In this document: one piece after another, positions 4,776 to 54,198 of the stretch
Layout: the number at the start of each line of letters is the position of its first letter
Position numbering within the stretch: the stretch's first letter is position 1
Assembly: GCA_036676495.1 (NCBI GenBank)
Contig: JAKFCT010000029.1
Location: 1 to 64,000, forward strand
Length of the DNA stretch: 64,000 nt
Direction: 5' to 3'
From: Candidatus Sericytochromatia bacterium
Lineage (GTDB): Bacteria; Cyanobacteriota; Sericytochromatia; S15B-MN24; UBA4093
The notes under the pieces: generated by a model
What the model saw: only the letters and a program-made list of their open reading frames with translations
What the model was told of the DNA's origin: nothing
The model's database searches: none
Program-made: the position numbers and the translations under genes

Positions 4776-6014
4776 CTACCGAGCGGCCAGAGCCTTGGTC
4801 TTGGGGGCGTCGGCGATCTCGAGGATCACCTCGGCGCCTTCCCGGGTCTGGTTCCAGAAGTCGGCGACGCGGGAGTACGGGGGATCGAAGCCGTCCCGGC
4901 GGCTGCCGACCTCGTAGGTGAAGCCGAAGGTGCCGTTGGCGTGGTAGGCGTAGTCGTTGTGCTCACCGGCATGGGGGTAGAGCTGCGAGCTCTGGTGCGC
5001 GTCGTACTTGCCGGCCTCGGCGAGCTTGTCGGCGATCGCCTGCATCCGCTTCTGATCGGGAGCCGGCTGATCGGTGTAAGCCCAGGGGTAGAGGACGATT
5101 TCGGAGTAGGAGTGGTAGGAGAGGGAGACGGGGAACTTGAACTGCTCGTGCAGCTTCTTGATGGCCTGGGTCTCGGGCTCCGAGAAGGGGGCTCCGCCGA
5201 CGAAGATCGGGCTCTTGGGATCGCGGCTGGTGCCGACGCCTGCCCACTGGTAGCCGTAGTTGCGGTTCAGGTCCACGCCGAAGAAGGGCGCGCCGCCGTA
5301 GGTCGAGTTCGCATTCTTGCGCCAATCCAGCCCCTGGGCCGCCCGAGCGTGGCCATCCGGGTTGAGCATGGGGACGATCCAGATGTCGCGGGTCTCCAGC
5401 CACTTGGTGATCTGGGCGTCGCGGCCGTTGCCCTTGACGAGGTGCTGGATGAGCATCAGGGGAAGCTCGACGGTGGCGAGCTCGCGGGCGTGGGTGCAGC
5501 CGGTGAAGAGCACCGGGGTCGCGCCGGGCTTGCCCATGCGGACGGCCCAGATGTCGCGATCGGCCTTGCCCTGGGTCTTCTCCCAGGTGTCGCCGATGTC
5601 GACCAGCTTGGCGATGCCGGGGTTGGCGGCGGTGATGGCCTTCAGCTCGGCGAGCAACTCGTCGTAAGTGTGATAAGCGGGATCGAAGGTGTTGTCGAGG
5701 TAGTTCGAGCCGCCGACCTGGATGGGCACGAGGGTGAAGCCCTTGGCCTTGAGGTCGCGCGCCTGCTTGGCGGTGACGCCGGCATCGACGGCTCCCATGC
5801 GCACGGAAAGGATCTCGGCGCCGGTGGCCTCGATGGCCGAGACGTGCTTCTGGTCCTGGATCTTGATCTCGACGGTGGCGGGGAGGCCGTTGGACTGCGC
5901 GAGAACCTTGTCGAGGCTCTGGTTGGTCTGGGGAGAGAGGAAGGACTGCTGACTGCAGCCCACGAGCAGGGAGACGGCGAGAGCCAGACCGAGGGGGCGC
6001 AGCGTACGTTTCAT
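4776..6014 (-). CDS. M14 zinc carboxypeptidase (carboxypeptidase T-like), lipoprotein
   Basis: Lipobox LLVGC; HARE, NPDG, WRKN, GVDLNRN, SEPET, HSYS motifs. Confidence 0.93.
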   Translation of the reverse strand: MKRTLRPLGLALAVSLLVGCSQQSFLSPQTNQSLDKVLAQSNGLPATVEIKIQDQKHVSAIEATGAEILSVRMGAVDAGVTAKQARDLKAKGFTLVPIQVGGSNYLDNTFDPAYHTYDELLAELKAITAANPGIAKLVDIGDTWEKTQGKADRDIWAVRMGKPGATPVLFTGCTHARELATVELPLMLIQHLVKGNGRDAQITKWLETRDIWIVPMLNPDGHARAAQGLDWRKNANSTYGGAPFFGVDLNRNYGYQWAGVGTSRDPKSPIFVGGAPFSEPETQAIKKLHEQFKFPVSLSYHSYSEIVLYPWAYTDQPAPDQKRMQAIADKLAEAGKYDAHQSSQLYPHAGEHNDYAYHANGTFGFTYEVGSRRDGFDPPYSRVADFWNQTREGAEVILEIADAPKTKALAAR

Positions 6015-6041
6015 CGAACCTCCATCACAGGGATCCCAGCT

Positions 6042-6098
6042 TTAAGTTCGGGTTAACCGACAGGGAGTTATCGTCGTTCCCGAAGCAAAACTTGCGTC
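6042..6098 (-). promoter_or_regulatory. Putative promoter GACGCAAG-N15-GACGATAA with perfect TTAA-N7-TTAA box downstream
   Basis: -35 at 6091-6098, -10 at 6068-6075, TTAAgttcgggTTAA at 6042-6056. Confidence 0.45.
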
Positions 6099-6215
6099 CC
6101 GCATCGGCAAAAGAAAGTCCAGATCCCAGGACCCTCTGGCTCCTCGATTCGGGCTGTCGTATACTGATAGCAGGCAATTACCACTGCGGGAGCCGCAGGC
6201 GCGAGGAGGCCCGTC

Positions 6216-7208
6216 GTGTTATCCAACTTTTCTGCGAAGGCCATCGAAGCGATCGAACGTGCCCGAGAAGAGGCCAAGCGCCTGGAGTTCAATCAGGTCG
6301 ATTCCGACCATTTGCTCTTGGGCCTCCTGGCCGAGGGCAACGGGGTGGCCGCCCGGGCGCTCAAGACCATGGGCTACGATCTTCGCAAGGCCCGCTTCGC
6401 CACCGAGCAGATCTCCGGGCGCGGGTACATGGGGACCGACCTCGACCAGCTCACCTTTTCGGCGGCGTGCACCCGGATCTTCGACGCGGCGCTGGCGATC
6501 GCCGGCAAGACCGAGCCCGTGCTGGTCGACACCCAGGACCTGCTCTTCGCGATCCTGAGGCAGCGGGAGAGCCGAGGCGCCAAGGTCCTGCGCCAGATGC
6601 AGGTCGACCTCGACGCGTTCGAGGGCCGCCTCATGGAGATCCGCAACCAGGACCTCGCGAGCCCCACCCCGGCGCCGCCGGATCCCCTCCATGCGATGCT
6701 GCCCCAGCGCTTCAATCCCCGCCTGCTCTCCGGGCTGGGCGAGCAGGTCTGGGACGCCGCCCATCAAATGGCACGCTCCTTCGGCCATACCATCGTGGGC
6801 ACCGAGCACCTCCTGATCGCCCTGCTGGCGGTCGAGGAAGGGCTCGCCTCTCAGGTCCTGCGCCAAAACGGCCTCACGCGCGTCGAGGTCGAGGCCGTCG
6901 TGCACCGGGTGATCGGCAGGGGCTCGGGGACCATCCCCGAGAAGCTCATGCTCTCTCGGCTCGGCGCGGCCACCCTGGAGGCTGCATGGAGCGAGGCGCG
7001 CCGGCGCCACCATGAGCAGGTGGGCACCGGCCACATGCTCTATGGCCTCCTTCAGCTGGATGCCGGCGGAGCGCTCGCCATCCTCGACATGCTGCGCATC
7101 AACCTCGCCGGCGTCCAGTACGACCTCGAACAGGCCTTCGAGGAAGAGCCGGAGGCGGTCGAGCCCGCCGGCCCGCGTCCCGAAGCACCGGTCACGCTGA
7201 ACGAATGA
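6216..7208 (+). CDS. Protein made only of two ClpC-type N-terminal (Clp_N) domains, no AAA+ module
   Basis: FSAKAIEAIERAREEA..DHLLLGLL and GHTIVGTEHLL..VGTGHML repeats; no Walker A; GAGGAGG RBS before GTG. Confidence 0.85.
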   Translation: MLSNFSAKAIEAIERAREEAKRLEFNQVDSDHLLLGLLAEGNGVAARALKTMGYDLRKARFATEQISGRGYMGTDLDQLTFSAACTRIFDAALAIAGKTEPVLVDTQDLLFAILRQRESRGAKVLRQMQVDLDAFEGRLMEIRNQDLASPTPAPPDPLHAMLPQRFNPRLLSGLGEQVWDAAHQMARSFGHTIVGTEHLLIALLAVEEGLASQVLRQNGLTRVEVEAVVHRVIGRGSGTIPEKLMLSRLGAATLEAAWSEARRRHHEQVGTGHMLYGLLQLDAGGALAILDMLRINLAGVQYDLEQAFEEEPEAVEPAGPRPEAPVTLNE

Positions 7209-15989: not shown

Positions 15990-16370
15990 CTACCGGATCT
16001 TGTCCACGAACAGCCCGGAGAGCTGCTTCTGGAACATGGAGACCATGTCGAGAATCTGCTCCGAGGGGAACTCGCGGATGACCTCGTTGGTTTCCGAGTT
16101 GAGGACCTGGACCATGACGGACTGGGTGCCGTCGTGGATCTTGAACTTCAGGTTGCGATCGAAGGCCTGGACGATCTGCTCGAGTTGCTTGACGGCCTGA
16201 GGCAGGAGGCGCGAGCCAGCGGCCTTCGCCTCGTCCGCGGCCTGCTGCTGTGCGGGAGTCGCCGGCTGGCGCTGCTGCTGATCGACAGCCTTCTCGGTCT
16301 TTTGGACGTCGGTGTCGTGTAGTTGCTGAGAGGCCATTCCCGTCGTGGCGATGACGCCTTCGATTCGCAT
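15990..16370 (-). CDS. flaG: Flagellar protein FlaG
   Basis: LKFKIHDGT..VLNSETNEVIREFPSEQIL..GLFVDK; lies between fliC and fliD. Confidence 0.93.
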   Translation of the reverse strand: MRIEGVIATTGMASQQLHDTDVQKTEKAVDQQQRQPATPAQQQAADEAKAAGSRLLPQAVKQLEQIVQAFDRNLKFKIHDGTQSVMVQVLNSETNEVIREFPSEQILDMVSMFQKQLSGLFVDKIR

Positions 16371-47382: not shown

Positions 47383-49740
47383 ATGGGCATGTGGAACGTT
47401 CGTCAGGCCAACGAGGACGAGGTCGCCCAGCTCTCTCAGAAGCTGGACTTGCCGCGGGCGATCGCCCGCGTCCTCTGGCTGCGCGGCTACCATACGCCTT
47501 CGGAGGCTCAGAAGTTCCTGGCCTCGCGCAACTCGCTCGACTACCTCAACCACCCGATCATGACTCCGGGCATGGAGAAGGCCGTCCGGCGGCTCAAGCA
47601 GGCCCTCGCTGGCGGCGAGAAGATCGTCATCTACGGGGACTACGACTGTGACGGCGTGACCAGCTCGACGGTCCTCTACCGCTACCTTGCGCGCGGCCTC
47701 AAGGGCAACGTCGAGGCCTACCTCCCCGATCGGTTCAAGGACGGCTACGGCGTCACCCCCGCCGCCGTCGAGCGGCTCGCAGCCCAGGGGACGAGGGTGA
47801 TTTTGACGTGTGACAATGGCATTTCGGCCCATGCGGCGGCGGCCACCGCCAAGGCTAATGGGATCGACTTGATCGTGACGGACCACCACCAGGTGCCCGA
47901 GGAGCTTCCGGACGTGCACTCCATCGTTCACCCGCAGGTGGACTTCCCTCACCTCAAGGATCTGGCGGGGGTGGGCGTGGCCTACCTCTTGACCATCGCG
48001 ATGGAAGGGTCGTACACCCCGCGCATGGAGCATTTCCTGGACTTCGTGACCATCGGGACGGTGGCGGACATGGTGCCGCTCAACGGTCCCAACCGCCCGC
48101 TGGTCTGGGCGGGGATCGAGCGCTTCCGCGAGCGTTACGGCCATGGAGCCAAGGGCGTCTTCCCGGGGGTCAAGGCCCTGGGGGCGATCGCCAAGTCCTC
48201 CTTCGAGACCTTCACCCCCCAGGACATCGGGTTCCGCTTCGGGCCGCGCCTCAACGCCGCCGGCCGGCTGGAGACCCCGGATATCGGGTTCAAGCTGCTC
48301 ACGACCAACGACGAGCGTGAGGCCTATCGCTACGCGAGCGAGCTGGACGCCATCAACGTCCAGCGCAAGGAGCTGAACGCCGAGCTGGAAAAGGAAATCT
48401 GCGATCGCCTGGAGCGGGAATGGGACTTCGACCGGGAGCCCTTCGTGGTCCTGGCGGACGAGAGCTTCCACCACGGCATCACCGGAATCGTGGCCGGCCG
48501 GATCAAGGAGCGCTACCGCGTGCCGGTCCTGCTCTTCTCGGGTCACGGGGATTCGCCCTGGAAGGCTTCAGGCCGCAGCCCTGAGGGCCTTCACCTCTAC
48601 GAGGCGCTTCATGCGGTCCAGGAGCATCTCCTGGGCTTCGGAGGGCATGCGCAAGCGGCGGGATGCGCGGCGATGCGGGAATCGATCCCGCTCCTGCGCG
48701 AGGCGCTCAACCGTCACGTCCATGAGTTGGGCTGGACCCGGCCTGCGGACGTGGTCTGGCTGGATGCCGAGCTTCCCTTCGCCGAGGCCACCGAGCAGCT
48801 GATCCGGCAGCTCGATGATCTGGAGCCCTTCGGCCAGAAGAACCCGGCTCCGGTCTTCGGGTTGCTGCAGGCCAGGGTGGTCGGCAAGCGCGTGTACAAG
48901 CAGCATCTCTTCGTGCAGATCGACGACGGCCGCACGGTGGTGGAGATTCCGCTCTGGGGGCAAGCCGACAAGGCCAACGACTACCACGGCTGGGTGCGGC
49001 TCGCGTACGTGCCGGAGATCAACACGTACCGGGGCGAGCGCAAGATCGCCTACCGGATCCTGAGGGTCGAGCGGACCTCGGCTCCCCCGCCGGTGGAGAT
49101 CGCGGCGCCTCAGGCTCCCGCTCCCGTGGAGGACCGGCGCAACGACGATCCGGCCCGGATCCTGGACGCCCTGGCGACGGGGCGGCCCGTCTCGATCTAC
49201 GCGAACCGCCTGCCGTCGGATGCGGCCTTGCTGGCGGCCATGGCCCGGCTGGAGGCCACGCTCTACCTGCCGCAGACTACCCTGCCGCTGGGACTGGGGC
49301 ACCTGGTTTGCCTGGACGTGCCCTACGACGAAGAGGCCTGGACCACCCTTCGGAGCCGGGCGGACGTCGTCACGATGGCCTGGAGCGAGCGCACGGAGAT
49401 GGCCTCCTTGACGACCTTGCCGGCCCTGGACGACCTGCGCGAGGGGGAGTTGAATCCGCAATGGCTGAGGCGGTTCTACCTAGCGCTTTCCGAGCATCGG
49501 GGGCAGCCGCTGGGGGAAGTGGCCTTCCAGATTGCGGGGACGGGTGGGGAGATGCGGGCGATCGCCGCCCTGCGGATCTTCCGCGAAGCGGGCATCTTGG
49601 TCGAGCGTGGCGATTACTGGAGCCTACTCACGCCGCCCGATTGGGACATCCAGCTGCCGCACCTGAAGAGCTTCCAGGCCTACAAGGAGGCGCAGGCCTT
49701 CCGGGAGCGGTTCGCTCGCGGAGCCGTCGTCCCCGTCTAA
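47383..49740 (+). CDS. recJ: ssDNA 5'-3' exonuclease RecJ with C-terminal extension
   Basis: GDYDCDG, TCDNG, TDHH, DMVPL, PRLNAAGRL, FGGHAQAAG, LEPFG..NP; ATG directly after the nuclease TAG. Confidence 0.96.
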   Translation: MGMWNVRQANEDEVAQLSQKLDLPRAIARVLWLRGYHTPSEAQKFLASRNSLDYLNHPIMTPGMEKAVRRLKQALAGGEKIVIYGDYDCDGVTSSTVLYRYLARGLKGNVEAYLPDRFKDGYGVTPAAVERLAAQGTRVILTCDNGISAHAAAATAKANGIDLIVTDHHQVPEELPDVHSIVHPQVDFPHLKDLAGVGVAYLLTIAMEGSYTPRMEHFLDFVTIGTVADMVPLNGPNRPLVWAGIERFRERYGHGAKGVFPGVKALGAIAKSSFETFTPQDIGFRFGPRLNAAGRLETPDIGFKLLTTNDEREAYRYASELDAINVQRKELNAELEKEICDRLEREWDFDREPFVVLADESFHHGITGIVAGRIKERYRVPVLLFSGHGDSPWKASGRSPEGLHLYEALHAVQEHLLGFGGHAQAAGCAAMRESIPLLREALNRHVHELGWTRPADVVWLDAELPFAEATEQLIRQLDDLEPFGQKNPAPVFGLLQARVVGKRVYKQHLFVQIDDGRTVVEIPLWGQADKANDYHGWVRLAYVPEINTYRGERKIAYRILRVERTSAPPPVEIAAPQAPAPVEDRRNDDPARILDALATGRPVSIYANRLPSDAALLAAMARLEATLYLPQTTLPLGLGHLVCLDVPYDEEAWTTLRSRADVVTMAWSERTEMASLTTLPALDDLREGELNPQWLRRFYLALSEHRGQPLGEVAFQIAGTGGEMRAIAALRIFREAGILVERGDYWSLLTPPDWDIQLPHLKSFQAYKEAQAFRERFARGAVVPV

Positions 49741-49771
49741 GGCCCGACCACACGGCAGGAGGCCATGGGGG

Positions 49772-49881
49772 CCCGTCATTCCCGCCCCTCACCCGTCATT
49801 CCCGCCCCTCACCCGTCATTCCCGCCCCTCACCCGTCATTCCCGCCCCTCACCCGTCATTCCCGCGAAAGCGGGAATCCAG
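49772..49881 (+). repeat. Four tandem 20-bp half-REP units ending in one complete CGTC-type REP
   Basis: (CCCGTCATTCCCGCCCCTCA)x4, then CCCGTCATTCCCGCGAAAGCGGGAATCCAG. Confidence 0.95.
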
Positions 49882-49929
49882 GGCTACTCAACCCTAGAAT
49901 GAGCCCTTTGGCGACGACACCATCCAGAG

Positions 49930-50220
49930 TCAGCCCAATTCGTGAAACAGGTCCCTCCACTGGGGATTCACCTTTTCGATGAGCTCCAGTTTCCAGGAGC
50001 GGTTCCATTTCTTGATCTGCTTCTCGCGCTGAATGGCAGCGAGCATCGTGTCATGCAGTTCGAAGTATACGAGCATGTGGACGCCGTACCGACGGGTGAA
50101 GCCCTGAACCAAGTCGCTCTTATGCTCCCAGACCCGCTTCACAAGGTCGCTGGTAACCCCGGTGTACAAGGTGCCGTTCCTTTTGCTGGCGAGGATGTAG
50201 ACGGAAGGTTGCTTTGCCAT
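49930..50220 (-). CDS. Small GIY-YIG nuclease (YhbQ/UPF0213-like), 96 aa
   Basis: VYILAS..TLYTGVT.DL.KR..EHK, FTRRY, LVYFE, AIQREKQIKKWNRSWK, NPQWRDL. Confidence 0.93.
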   Translation of the reverse strand: MAKQPSVYILASKRNGTLYTGVTSDLVKRVWEHKSDLVQGFTRRYGVHMLVYFELHDTMLAAIQREKQIKKWNRSWKLELIEKVNPQWRDLFHELG

Positions 50221-50325
50221 CGCCCCCCCCAAATACAGAGTTCCCGCGAAAGCATCCCCCTGATTTGGGTTTCAGCCTTCACGGGAACGAGCCCCTGACG
50301 TTGTTTACGCGTCGCTGCGCTGCAA

Positions 50326-50354
50326 CTGGATTCCCGCTTTCGCGGGAATGACGG
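50326..50354 (-). repeat. CGTC-type REP, exact inverted copy of 49853-49881
   Basis: CTGGATTCCCGCTTTCGCGGGAATGACGG; degenerate copies also at ~50240-50291. Confidence 0.95.
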
Positions 50355-50355
50355 T

Positions 50356-50985
50356 TCAGCCCTTGGCGGTATCGAGGTTGACCTCGCGAGCCAGGATGAT
50401 GGCGTCGGCGATTTCCTTGAGGGGCTTGCGCCGGTCCATGGAGAGCTTCTGGATCTTGCGGAAGGCGGCCGCCTCGGAGAGGCCGTAATTCTCCATCAGG
50501 ATGCCCTTGGCCTTTTCGACCAGCTTGCGGGTCTCGATGGTTTCCTTGAGGTCGCCGACTTCCTTTTGAAGGGCGTAGAGTTCGTTTGCGCGGGCGAGAG
50601 CGACCTCGATGGTGGGAAGGATGTCGGCTTCCTTGATGGGCTTGACCAGGTAGCCATAGACGCCGAGTTCGGTGGCCTGCTGAACCAGTTCGGGCTGGGA
50701 GTAGGCGGTGAGCATGATGACGGGGATGGTGCGCTCGGCGTTGATGTGCTTCACGGCCTCCAGGCCGTCCATGACGGGCATCTTGATGTCCATGACGATG
50801 AGATCGGGGTTGAGCTTCTGGGCGAGCTCGACGGCCTCCTGGCCGTTGGAGCCCTCTCCGACGATCTCGTGGCCCTGCTCCTTGAGCATTTCGCGCAGGT
50901 CCAGCCGGATGATCGATTCGTCGTCCACCAAGAGAATCCGTAGCTTCTTCGATTTGCTCGTCGCGGGGTTCGTAAAGCTGTTCAT
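50356..50985 (-). CDS. REC-ANTAR response regulator (PdtaR/EutV-like)
   Basis: ILLVDDE, MDIKMP, YLVKP; RKLVEKAKGILM..SEAAAF..IQKLSMDRR ANTAR domain. Confidence 0.93.
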   Translation of the reverse strand: MNSFTNPATSKSKKLRILLVDDESIIRLDLREMLKEQGHEIVGEGSNGQEAVELAQKLNPDLIVMDIKMPVMDGLEAVKHINAERTIPVIMLTAYSQPELVQQATELGVYGYLVKPIKEADILPTIEVALARANELYALQKEVGDLKETIETRKLVEKAKGILMENYGLSEAAAFRKIQKLSMDRRKPLKEIADAIILAREVNLDTAKG

Positions 50986-53805: not shown

Positions 53806-54198
53806 TCAGACCCCGCCTCCCACCGCGGGGAAGTAGACGAGGAGGAGGGCGCGTTGGTCGTCGTCCTCCGTGCGAAGGCGTTGCAGGGCCTTTCGCTCGC
53901 GGCCGGAGACGGCGGGGATCGTCCGGTCGTAGAGGTCCACGAGCTCTTGCTTGGTGGTGATGAGGGCTTCGGGGAAGTCCTCGGGGGTTTCGACCTCCGG
54001 GGTCTCGGGAGGGGCGATCCCGCGGTCGACCAGCAGCTCCCAGAGGGTCTGGGCGTGCCGGTCGTCTTCCACGGCATGCCGCTCGAGGATGTCGTAGACC
54101 GCGCTCCCGCGGCCTCCCTCATCGAGCCAGCGGCGGTCCAGGATGCCCGAGATCCGTTCGAGTTCGAGGGCGTGGACCAGGTCGTCTTCAACCGGCAT
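53806..54198 (-). CDS. Small ferritin-like four-helix protein
   Basis: ELE..EDDRH and ELVDLY..EDDDQ spacing typical of ferritin-like folds. Confidence 0.55.
   Translation of the reverse strand: MPVEDDLVHALELERISGILDRRWLDEGGRGSAVYDILERHAVEDDRHAQTLWELLVDRGIAPPETPEVETPEDFPEALITTKQELVDLYDRTIPAVSGRERKALQRLRTEDDDQRALLLVYFPAVGGGV

Follow-up and report, generated by a model that had tools for sequence, protein, structure and literature searches.

A probable Ssn-type GIY-YIG nuclease gene bracketed by its predicted recognition repeats in a Sericytochromatia genome

We analysed a window of 64,000 nucleotides, positions 1-64000 of contig JAKFCT010000029.1 (C29), from the assembly of a Candidatus Sericytochromatia bacterium (G000; 4.14 Mb, 106 contigs, 66% GC), and in it a small GIY-YIG nuclease gene that lies between two inverted hairpin repeats tagged with CGTC. 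Our combined findings make it very probable that this gene encodes a nuclease of the Ssn family, and that the flanking repeats and about 50 further copies across the genome are its predicted recognition sites, the NTS. The family features of the protein, the exact match of the repeats, the association of gene and repeat, and the population of repeats in the genome are observed, and, by analogy with assayed relatives, the protein of the window is likely to cleave this repeat. The NTS-ssn-NTS arrangement is an ordinary new example of a system published in 2025, to which this identification adds little.

Results

The nuclease gene lies between two exact NTS repeats

The gene, ssn (49930-50220, minus strand), encodes a 96-aa single-domain GIY-YIG nuclease (PF01541, E 9.2e-17, residues 10-82). 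It is bracketed by an exact 29-nt inverted repeat, CCGTCATTCCCGCGAAAGCGGGAATCCAG, whose copies at 49853-49881 and 50326-50354 were found by inspection of the sequence and are reverse complements of each other; a repeat finder extended the pair, imperfectly, to 34-nt arms at 49848-49881 and 50326-50359 that are 94% complementary. Each arm is an 8-bp hairpin, ATTCCCGC-GAAA-GCGGGAAT, with CGTC facing away from the GIY-YIG gene and CCAG facing it. Folded as single-stranded DNA (ssDNA), the left and right arms reach -10.7 kcal/mol (z -4.6) and -9.0 kcal/mol (z -3.9), values that 0 of 200 shuffled sequences equalled for either arm. At up to 3 mismatches, the 20-nt core of the repeat occurs twice in the window versus 0.01 times expected (0 of 100 shuffles reached two copies), and both occurrences are the arms beside this gene.

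Within the arms, the left NTS (CGTCATTCCCGCGAAAGCGGGAATCCAG, 49854-49881, plus strand) lies 3' of the ssn stop codon with its CGTC tag outward, and the right NTS, the same sequence inverted (50326-50353, minus strand), lies upstream of ssn. Both match exactly the NTS consensus, CGTCATTCCCGCGMAVGCGGGAATCYRG, which contains the Neisseria repeat dRS3, and also the broader 'Ssn-related motif' (SRM), both as published by Chenal et al. (2025, Nat Commun 16:2388, PMC11893778). An earlier sequence-only reading of this DNA had equated the repeat core with dRS3, a point with which this exact match agrees. It had further held that no dedicated enzyme is established for CGTC-tagged repetitive extragenic palindromes (REPs), which was the state of knowledge reflected in Di Nocera et al. 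(2013, PMC3733652) and has since been overtaken by the SsnA-type cleavage of exactly this repeat (PMC11893778). SsnA-associated repeats already serve as a benchmark class in a 2026 preprint.

The published system provides the frame for what follows. In the report of Chenal et al., the Ssn family consists of single-domain GIY-YIG nucleases found in many bacteria besides Neisseria. SsnA, a protein of 94 aa assigned to CDD cd10448, binds the NTS strand solely as ssDNA and cleaves it a few nt upstream of the repeat, and cutting is lost in the mutants Y6A, Y17A and E64A. Three more homologues cleave their own repeats, bringing the assayed set to N. meningitidis, N. elongata, N. wadsworthii and Wolbachia pipientis, and the 5' and 3' halves of the site are still cut when supplied separately or with an extended loop. 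SRM flank the ssnA homologues, with at least one nearby in 71% and with motifs on both sides in 42%. In N. meningitidis, SsnA reduces transformation by NTS-bearing DNA. The Discussion of that report describes the NTS-ssnA-NTS layout as identical to that of an insertion sequence and likens it to RAYT transposases, REPs and bacterial interspersed mosaic elements (BIMEs), leaving mobilization as a hypothesis.

Between the arms, ssn is the sole credible gene, 96 aa long from its ATG, or 100 aa if an upstream TTG start is used. Just upstream of its start lies a degenerate NTS-like hairpin with a long loop (50240-50288, minus strand; 14-bp stem GTTCCCGTGAAGGC...GCTTTCGCGGGAAC), accompanied by a CGTC tag at 50297-50300; it folds at -12.9 kcal/mol (z -2.4), with 6 of 200 shuffles as good, and long-loop NTS variants are also present at homologous loci. 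The unit sits between two convergent genes, namely recJ (47383-49740, plus strand; DHH, DHHA1 and RecJ_OB domains) and a response-regulator gene with an ANTAR domain (50356-50985, minus strand; identified by domain matches), whose stop codon lies 2 nt from the outer end of the right NTS. The GC content of ssn is 55%, compared with 67% and 61% in its two neighbours. A promoter scan of 49700-50420 found none. The structural description given in the sequence-only reading, that is, an exact inverted repeat of hairpin arms with outward CGTC, enclosing one 96-aa GIY-YIG gene and a degenerate repeat between convergent recJ and ANTAR genes, was borne out in each of these respects by inspection, repeat finding, ssDNA folding, gene coordinates and domain matches.

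Family features of the nuclease

Pfam finds the GIY-YIG domain alone in the 96-aa protein, with no second family. An alignment of 39 sequences from diverse relatives shows no variation at Y8, Y19, R29, H33 or E66, and Y8, Y19 and E66 each lie two residues beyond Y6, Y17 and E64 of SsnA; this offset, rather than an alignment with SsnA, is our basis for equating them. A homologue on a contig of Dechloromonas denitrificans ATCC BAA-841 (L161) shares 73% identity with the protein, and in Supplementary Data 4 of PMC11893778 D. denitrificans (GCF_001551835.1) is marked YES for each of the four ssnA-homologue/cd10448 criteria.

The family is large, with 5,506 cluster representatives at E ≤ 1e-10 and 14,425 at E ≤ 1e-3; in a word-indexed search, 7,996 of 8,000 scored candidates passed E 1e-5. 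The best word-search matches, at 74-78% identity, came from Nitrospirae, Beta- and Gammaproteobacteria, Syntrophales and Anaerolineales among the named sources, and homologous proteins are 63-78% identical across many phyla. Neisseria was not represented among the best 80 named-genome loci. The gene is single-copy in G000, where the only other small GIY-YIG frame (C47) shares 36% identity with it and lacks repeats of this kind in its vicinity.

In a PDB sequence search the sole individually significant stretch was in UPF0213 protein BH0048 (1zg2, E 4.7e-4); the WD40 proteins at the top of that list are an artefact that comes from adding up weak repeats, none of their stretches being significant by itself. 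PADLOC had no family for the protein, and no NCBIfam model scored over its cut-off. A GIY-YIG homing endonuclease of the I-TevI type was rejected, with TIGR01453 at 17.1 bits versus a cut-off of 56.05 and a protein too short for a second domain. In some family proteins (alignment A1; P0130, P0183 and others) the C terminus is a tail like GFPPSRE or PPSRG, which is the downstream hairpin repeat in translation; those gene calls therefore overrun into the repeat.

Gene and repeat are associated across phyla

We examined 159 homologous loci, 79 of them from metagenomes (67-78% identity) and the other 80 being the best named-genome loci (63-77% identity), scoring SRM within 300 bp of the gene. Among the metagenome loci, 66 of 79 were evaluable, with at least 150 bp on either side, and SRM were found on both sides of the gene in 42, on one side in 19 and on neither in 5. 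Their density was 3.65/kb within 300 bp versus 0.058/kb beyond, in a set whose loci are not all independent, since L056-L058 are identical and L111 and L112 nearly so. Of the named-genome loci, 74 of 80 were evaluable, with SRM on both sides in 35, on one in 24 and on none in 15; the densities were 3.15/kb near the gene versus 0.109/kb farther away, and the tags pointed outward in 30 of 74. These named genomes span Pseudomonadota, Planctomycetota, Chloroflexota, Desulfobacterota, Cyanobacteriota, Acidobacteriota, Patescibacteria and others. Across homologous loci, SRM are thus enriched 29- to 63-fold near the gene, and the proposal that the GIY-YIG gene and the CGTC repeat belong together holds as a general, cross-phylum association.

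The usual unit is tighter than that of the window, with 32-46 nt from the beginning of the upstream repeat to the start codon and 7-22 nt from the stop to the downstream repeat. The nearest upstream and downstream repeats share their stem in 61 of 79 loci. Co-variation of protein and repeat, which the sequence-only reading had named as a check, was also found: proteins with the same stem are more alike (70.2% versus 67.2% identity; 0 of 2000 label shuffles reached this), although this statistic does not control for relatedness. Divergent homologues in relatives are flanked by tagged hairpins of their own, CGTCACCCTCGCG... in G003, CGTCGCCCCGGCG... in G018 and TGTCATTCTGTTG... in G030. The G018 variant has two exact copies, both at the gene, and two one-mismatch copies elsewhere; the G030 variant has two copies in all, both beside the gene. 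Shared stems and gene-linked variant hairpins show that the hairpins are part of the gene's unit and not mere surroundings.

Repeats across the genome

The sequence-only reading had regarded the arms as members of a repeat family, and a genome count confirmed this. With the loop left unconstrained and at most 2 mismatches, we found 51 NTS copies in G000 (26 forward, 25 reverse) versus 0 for the reversed pattern. There are 14 strict NTS and 85 SRM matches, versus 0 and 12, respectively, in the reversed genome. Many copies are tail-to-tail doublets of the form GTCA-hairpin-CCAnTGG-hairpin-TGAC, often combining an ATTCCC...GGGAAT copy with an ACTCCC...GGGAGT copy; the geometry of a doublet is that of the gene-bearing unit minus its interior.

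A second hairpin-repeat system is present in the same genome. At ~5945-6415 of contig C48 (L033) we found a RAYT-like Y1_Tnp gene, the sole PF01797 match in G000 (E 5.8e-9), which is bracketed (~5760-6470) by GTGGGGCGGGCCTCYGYGCCCGCC; two copies precede the gene in forward orientation and one, inverted, follows it. G000 has 42 copies of this REP when up to 3 mismatches are allowed. A classical REPtron, in the sense of a RAYT gene with its own REP, therefore coexists with the Ssn unit. RAYT (Y1/HUH transposase) genes are reportedly flanked by GTAG-tagged REPs, an observation attributed to Nunvar in 2010. The likeness in geometry between the window unit and RAYT genes with their REPs, to which the sequence-only reading had pointed, stands, and the RAYT-like unit of G000 has its own, different REP.

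A third abundant repeat of G000 contains GCTGCCTTTCGCAACAGCCGCGGGCGCTAG, with 75 copies of its 16-nt core at up to 1 mismatch (for example at C10:4296 and C28:23598). It often follows GTTGCTTCAGGACAGC-like words, is sometimes tandem with a 55-nt period and is also found at the G001 site orthologous to C27:7413. It might be another REP family, a family of miniature inverted-repeat transposable elements or a CRISPR-like array.

Old repeat sites and no footprint of insertion

A homologue (E ≤ 1e-5) is present in 7 of 41 genomes, counting G000, and the repeat in 6 of 41. We compared four NTS sites on contig C27 (7413, 16244-16341, 51257 and 53837-53889) with the congeneric genome G002 (C67, C45) and found an NTS at the same intergenic position in all four. 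In the compared stretches, coding DNA of the two genomes is 79-91% identical and the spacers around the NTS no longer align; the compared sites are therefore old, being at orthologous positions in two species at this distance. Singlet or doublet state and spacer length differ, with a G002 doublet versus a G000 singlet at one site and a doublet spacer of 16 nt versus none at another. Near-perfect repeats amid diverged spacers point to selection or homogenization rather than recent jumping. One NTS copy at a C27 site lies in a short spacer between two frames that resemble a split gene. The third congener, G001, has no NTS anywhere; at those sites it carries unrelated repeats in spacers that cannot be aligned. 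No insertion footprint was readable at the four C27 sites, which are filled in both G000 and G002.

At the window unit itself, we found no target duplication (local alignment of the outer flanks scored 15, versus 11.8 on average and 18 at most in shuffles). An 11/12 match between the 3' end of the ANTAR gene and DNA inside the left NTS was rejected as a duplication, since 105 of 1000 shuffles did as well. Nor was a target duplication found at 47 canonical homologous units, where the longest words shared by the flanks were distributed like those of mismatched controls. The empty sites that the sequence-only reading had proposed to look for in relatives were not found; among 5 relatives there was no empty recJ/ANTAR junction, the ANTAR gene being present in 4 and recJ adjacent to it in none. 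In G001 (L046, G001:C6, 464-1404), which lacks ssn and NTS, the ANTAR gene is adjoined downstream by xseB and a Phd/YefM antitoxin gene with a partner frame of 143/144 aa. With these neighbours in place of recJ, the spacer region is evidently variable within the genus.

Half-site arrays on the cutting side

The region described in the sequence-only reading starts at 49772, the first base of a feature that it left undescribed, a tandem array of four exact 20-nt units, CCCGTCATTCCCGCCCCTCA (49772-49851, plus strand; repeat finder, spacing 20). Each unit comprises the 5' half of the NTS (tag and 5' stem arm) and a 7-nt C-rich spacer. The array abuts the complete left NTS, giving four half sites without a 3' arm at 49774-49834. 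Elsewhere in G000, 14 of 43 occurrences of CGTCATTCCCGC are without a 3' arm, and several of these precede a complete repeat by 20-22 nt, the spacers differing from locus to locus.

In the SRM set, a direct copy of the first 12 nt was found at most 45 nt upstream of 35 of 423 repeats (6/85, 12/168 and 17/170). Of the same 423, 11 were followed by a direct copy of the last 12 nt, and each of these 11 is a complete tandem repeat with a 5' arm. With a looser hairpin finder, which also collects unrelated GTC hairpins, 45 of 817 had a 5'-half-only copy upstream (17 of the 45 from one genome, L190/L195) versus 3 with a 3'-half-only copy downstream; of these three, one is no NTS and the other two are complete repeats that contain a mismatch. 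In that Thermodesulfobacteriota genome, the composite of half, spacer and full repeat is itself the dispersed unit. Upstream half sites are exemplified by the window array, by C45:40325, C80:31600 and C22:19054 of G000, and by loci L108, L089, L112, L215, L190 and L195; their spacers are short and mostly pyrimidine-rich. The excess of half sites lies on the side of the repeat on which Ssn cuts. Neither 'tandem' nor 'duplication' occurs as a word in the main text of PMC11893778.

The number of units can differ between nearly identical contigs. Loci L111 and L112 are 98.8% identical over 5.2 kb and carry 1 versus 5 extra 9-nt CGTCATTCC units adjoining the downstream repeat of ssn (L111 ~2510-2530, L112 ~2508-2553), which looks like a fast-changing length polymorphism.

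A multiplied ssn cassette in another genome

Two of the homologous loci, L159 and L188, belong to one delta-proteobacterial metagenome-assembled genome (G041) and share a discrete ssn segment of ~500 bp at 91% identity. The segment has a 17-nt terminal inverted repeat, CATAAGCGCTAACTTAA, with 22 copies in G041 versus 0 for the control. We found 10 complete elements of 461-650 bp, of which 7 have an intact 96-aa ssn open reading frame, 1 a C-terminally altered one and 2 a broken one, plus an 11th one-ended copy and one remnant (L247, L249, L251, L253, L254, L256, L257, L258, L260, L261, L246 and L259). Direct repeats of 11 bp flank the complete elements, exact in 6/10, with one mismatch in 3/10 and shifted in 1/10. 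These ends and direct repeats fit the signature of the IS231 subgroup of the IS4 family of insertion sequences (ISs), with ends CAT-------AA--TAA and direct repeats of 10-12 bp (De Palmenaer et al. 2008, PMC2266710 Table 1). Similar ends were found at L109, L110 and L182. IS231 has the target preference GGG(N)5CCC, of which the G/C-rich ends of the duplicated 11-mers in G041 are reminiscent. No transposase with matching ends was found in G041 at the 12 DDE_Tnp_1 loci fetched of 18 matches. Judging from these sequence features, the G041 elements are likeliest to be mobile insertion cassettes that carry ssn as cargo and owe their movement to an IS4-family transposase acting in trans. No IS231-type end signature was found within 49401-50800 of the window.

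Discussion

Several other explanations for the window unit were weighed against that of an Ssn nuclease with its recognition sites. A housekeeping repair nuclease, YhbQ/UPF0213- or Slx1-like, could have come to lie in a repeat-rich spacer by chance, as might be suggested by the UPF0213 protein BH0048 being the sole significant PDB match and by the presence of the repeats at many other spacers. However, just two NTS occur in 64 kb and both are at ssn, and chance placement next to the gene is ruled out by the 29- to 63-fold repeat enrichment beside homologues, so that we regard a mere neighbourhood of this kind as extremely improbable. A passenger cassette bounded by IS ends and moved in trans by a DDE transposase has a precedent in G041, with its characteristic ends, multiple copies, 11-bp duplications and fit to IS231. 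The window has neither such ends (49401-50800) nor a target duplication, and even in G041 inspection of 12 of the 18 DDE_Tnp_1 loci revealed no helper transposase; it is highly improbable that this explanation applies to the window. Compared with the IS231 mobile insertion cassettes, the G041 elements, of which there are 11 copies, are alike in ends and 11-bp repeats, whereas the window unit lacks ends and duplication.

More deserves to be said about the proposal of the sequence-only reading, a REPtron-like selfish element of ~500 bp in which a GIY-YIG nickase takes the role of RAYT and moves or copies the NTS-ssn-NTS unit, the singlets and the doublets, for instance by nick-primed copying or by homing into empty doublets. 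The same hypothesis was raised, without a test, in PMC11893778, and a number of our observations fit it: the geometry of RAYT/REP units, with a real RAYT-like unit in G000 for comparison; gene-less doublets resembling the unit with its interior removed; the patchy distribution (7/41 genomes) of a gene whose proteins remain 63-78% identical across many phyla; an ssn GC content of 55% in a 66% genome; the two exact G018 copies and the two G030 copies, all at or beside the gene; the accumulation of 5'-half copies on the enzyme's cutting side only; and near-identical contigs (L111/L112) that differ in unit number. Yet ssn is single-copy in G000, no target duplication or flank homology was found at the window unit or at 47 canonical units, all four compared NTS sites are orthologous in G002 and hence old, and no empty site was found in 5 relatives. 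Moreover, GIY-YIG nucleases hydrolyse DNA and, to our knowledge, form no covalent intermediates and do not ligate or rejoin ends, a chemistry that counts against the nuclease as mobilizer. The published enzyme cuts on one side of the hairpin and on one strand (PMC11893778). A selfish transposon, or a nuclease that mobilizes the repeats, is thus unsupported here by copy number, flanks and the 4/4 orthologous sites, and we consider it unlikely. There is no sign of ongoing jumping of the repeats in G000 in the four orthologous sites, the flanks or the copy number; selection or homogenization appears to hold them where they are.

Some findings also weigh against an Ssn nuclease with NTS as its sites. 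Cleavage by the window protein rests on analogy with the four assayed enzymes, and the family criteria (tblastn E < 1e-10 to SsnA; cd10448) reach it only indirectly, via D. denitrificans. Between the upstream NTS and the start codon there are 105 nt, compared with a usual gap of ~4-18 nt. G002 has 115 NTS copies and G010 has 13, both with no ssn match, and repeats can therefore persist without the gene; the ssn region of G002 may, however, be unassembled, as this genome is 85% complete and its ANTAR orthologue also went undetected. Finally, the role described in Neisseria depends on natural transformation (PMC11893778), and its transfer to this host is uncertain.

Taking the window unit as an Ssn nuclease and its sites, we would expect it to act as follows. 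Where DNA carrying an NTS becomes single-stranded, during replication or repair or as incoming transforming or conjugating DNA, the NTS strand would fold into its hairpin. The Ssn protein would then bind stem, tag and tail in a sequence-specific manner and hydrolyse the strand a few nt 5' of CGTC, leaving the complementary strand and duplex DNA uncut. By analogy with Neisseria, the gain for the cell would most likely be control of recombination with NTS-bearing single strands.

The system shares with Neisseria SsnA a single-domain GIY-YIG protein of ~95 aa, the catalytic Tyr/Tyr/Glu, an NTS-identical repeat and its inverted bracketing of the gene, as well as tens of further copies in the genome; the 85 SRM in 4.1 Mb found here compare with 91 in 4.2 Mb for D. 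denitrificans, which has 39 NTS and 91 SRM in Supplementary Data 4 of PMC11893778. It differs in its GC-rich host, in having 14 strict NTS versus hundreds in pathogenic Neisseria, in the long upstream gap with a degenerate long-loop copy within it and in the four-unit array of 5' half sites outside the NTS on the stop-codon side of ssn; it is also known here from sequence alone.

Like a REPtron, the unit consists of a single-copy gene between inverted hairpin repeats that are dispersed as singlets and inverted doublets, and its enzyme would, by analogy, recognize the hairpin in ssDNA. Unlike RAYT, the window protein is a GIY-YIG hydrolase and not a Y1/HUH enzyme (no PF01797), its repeats carry CGTC and not GTAG, and we know of no strand-transfer chemistry in Ssn. 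IS200/IS605 TnpA is similar in that subterminal hairpins are recognized on one ssDNA strand, which is cut beside the hairpin (PMC11893778, Discussion), but TnpA cuts one strand at both ends and rejoins them via a covalent tyrosine intermediate, whereas the demonstrated activity of Ssn is limited to cleavage 5' of the hairpin.

The findings place an exact Neisseria-type NTS together with ssn in a distant, GC-rich genome. As this one genome holds both RAYT/REP and Ssn/NTS, it offers a natural side-by-side case of two hairpin-repeat systems. Three of our observations bear on whether Ssn nucleases spread their repeats, namely the half-site arrays, the orthologous repeats amid diverged spacers and the IS231-type multiplication in G041. 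It is a doubtful proposition that the half-site arrays are scars or working parts of nuclease action on the cutting side, where they might arise through repeated nick-and-resynthesis or might provide several 5' arms that alternatively pair with one 3' arm. If true, Ssn nicking itself would create and multiply repeats, which would give CGTC REPs a means of propagation that is free of any transposase.

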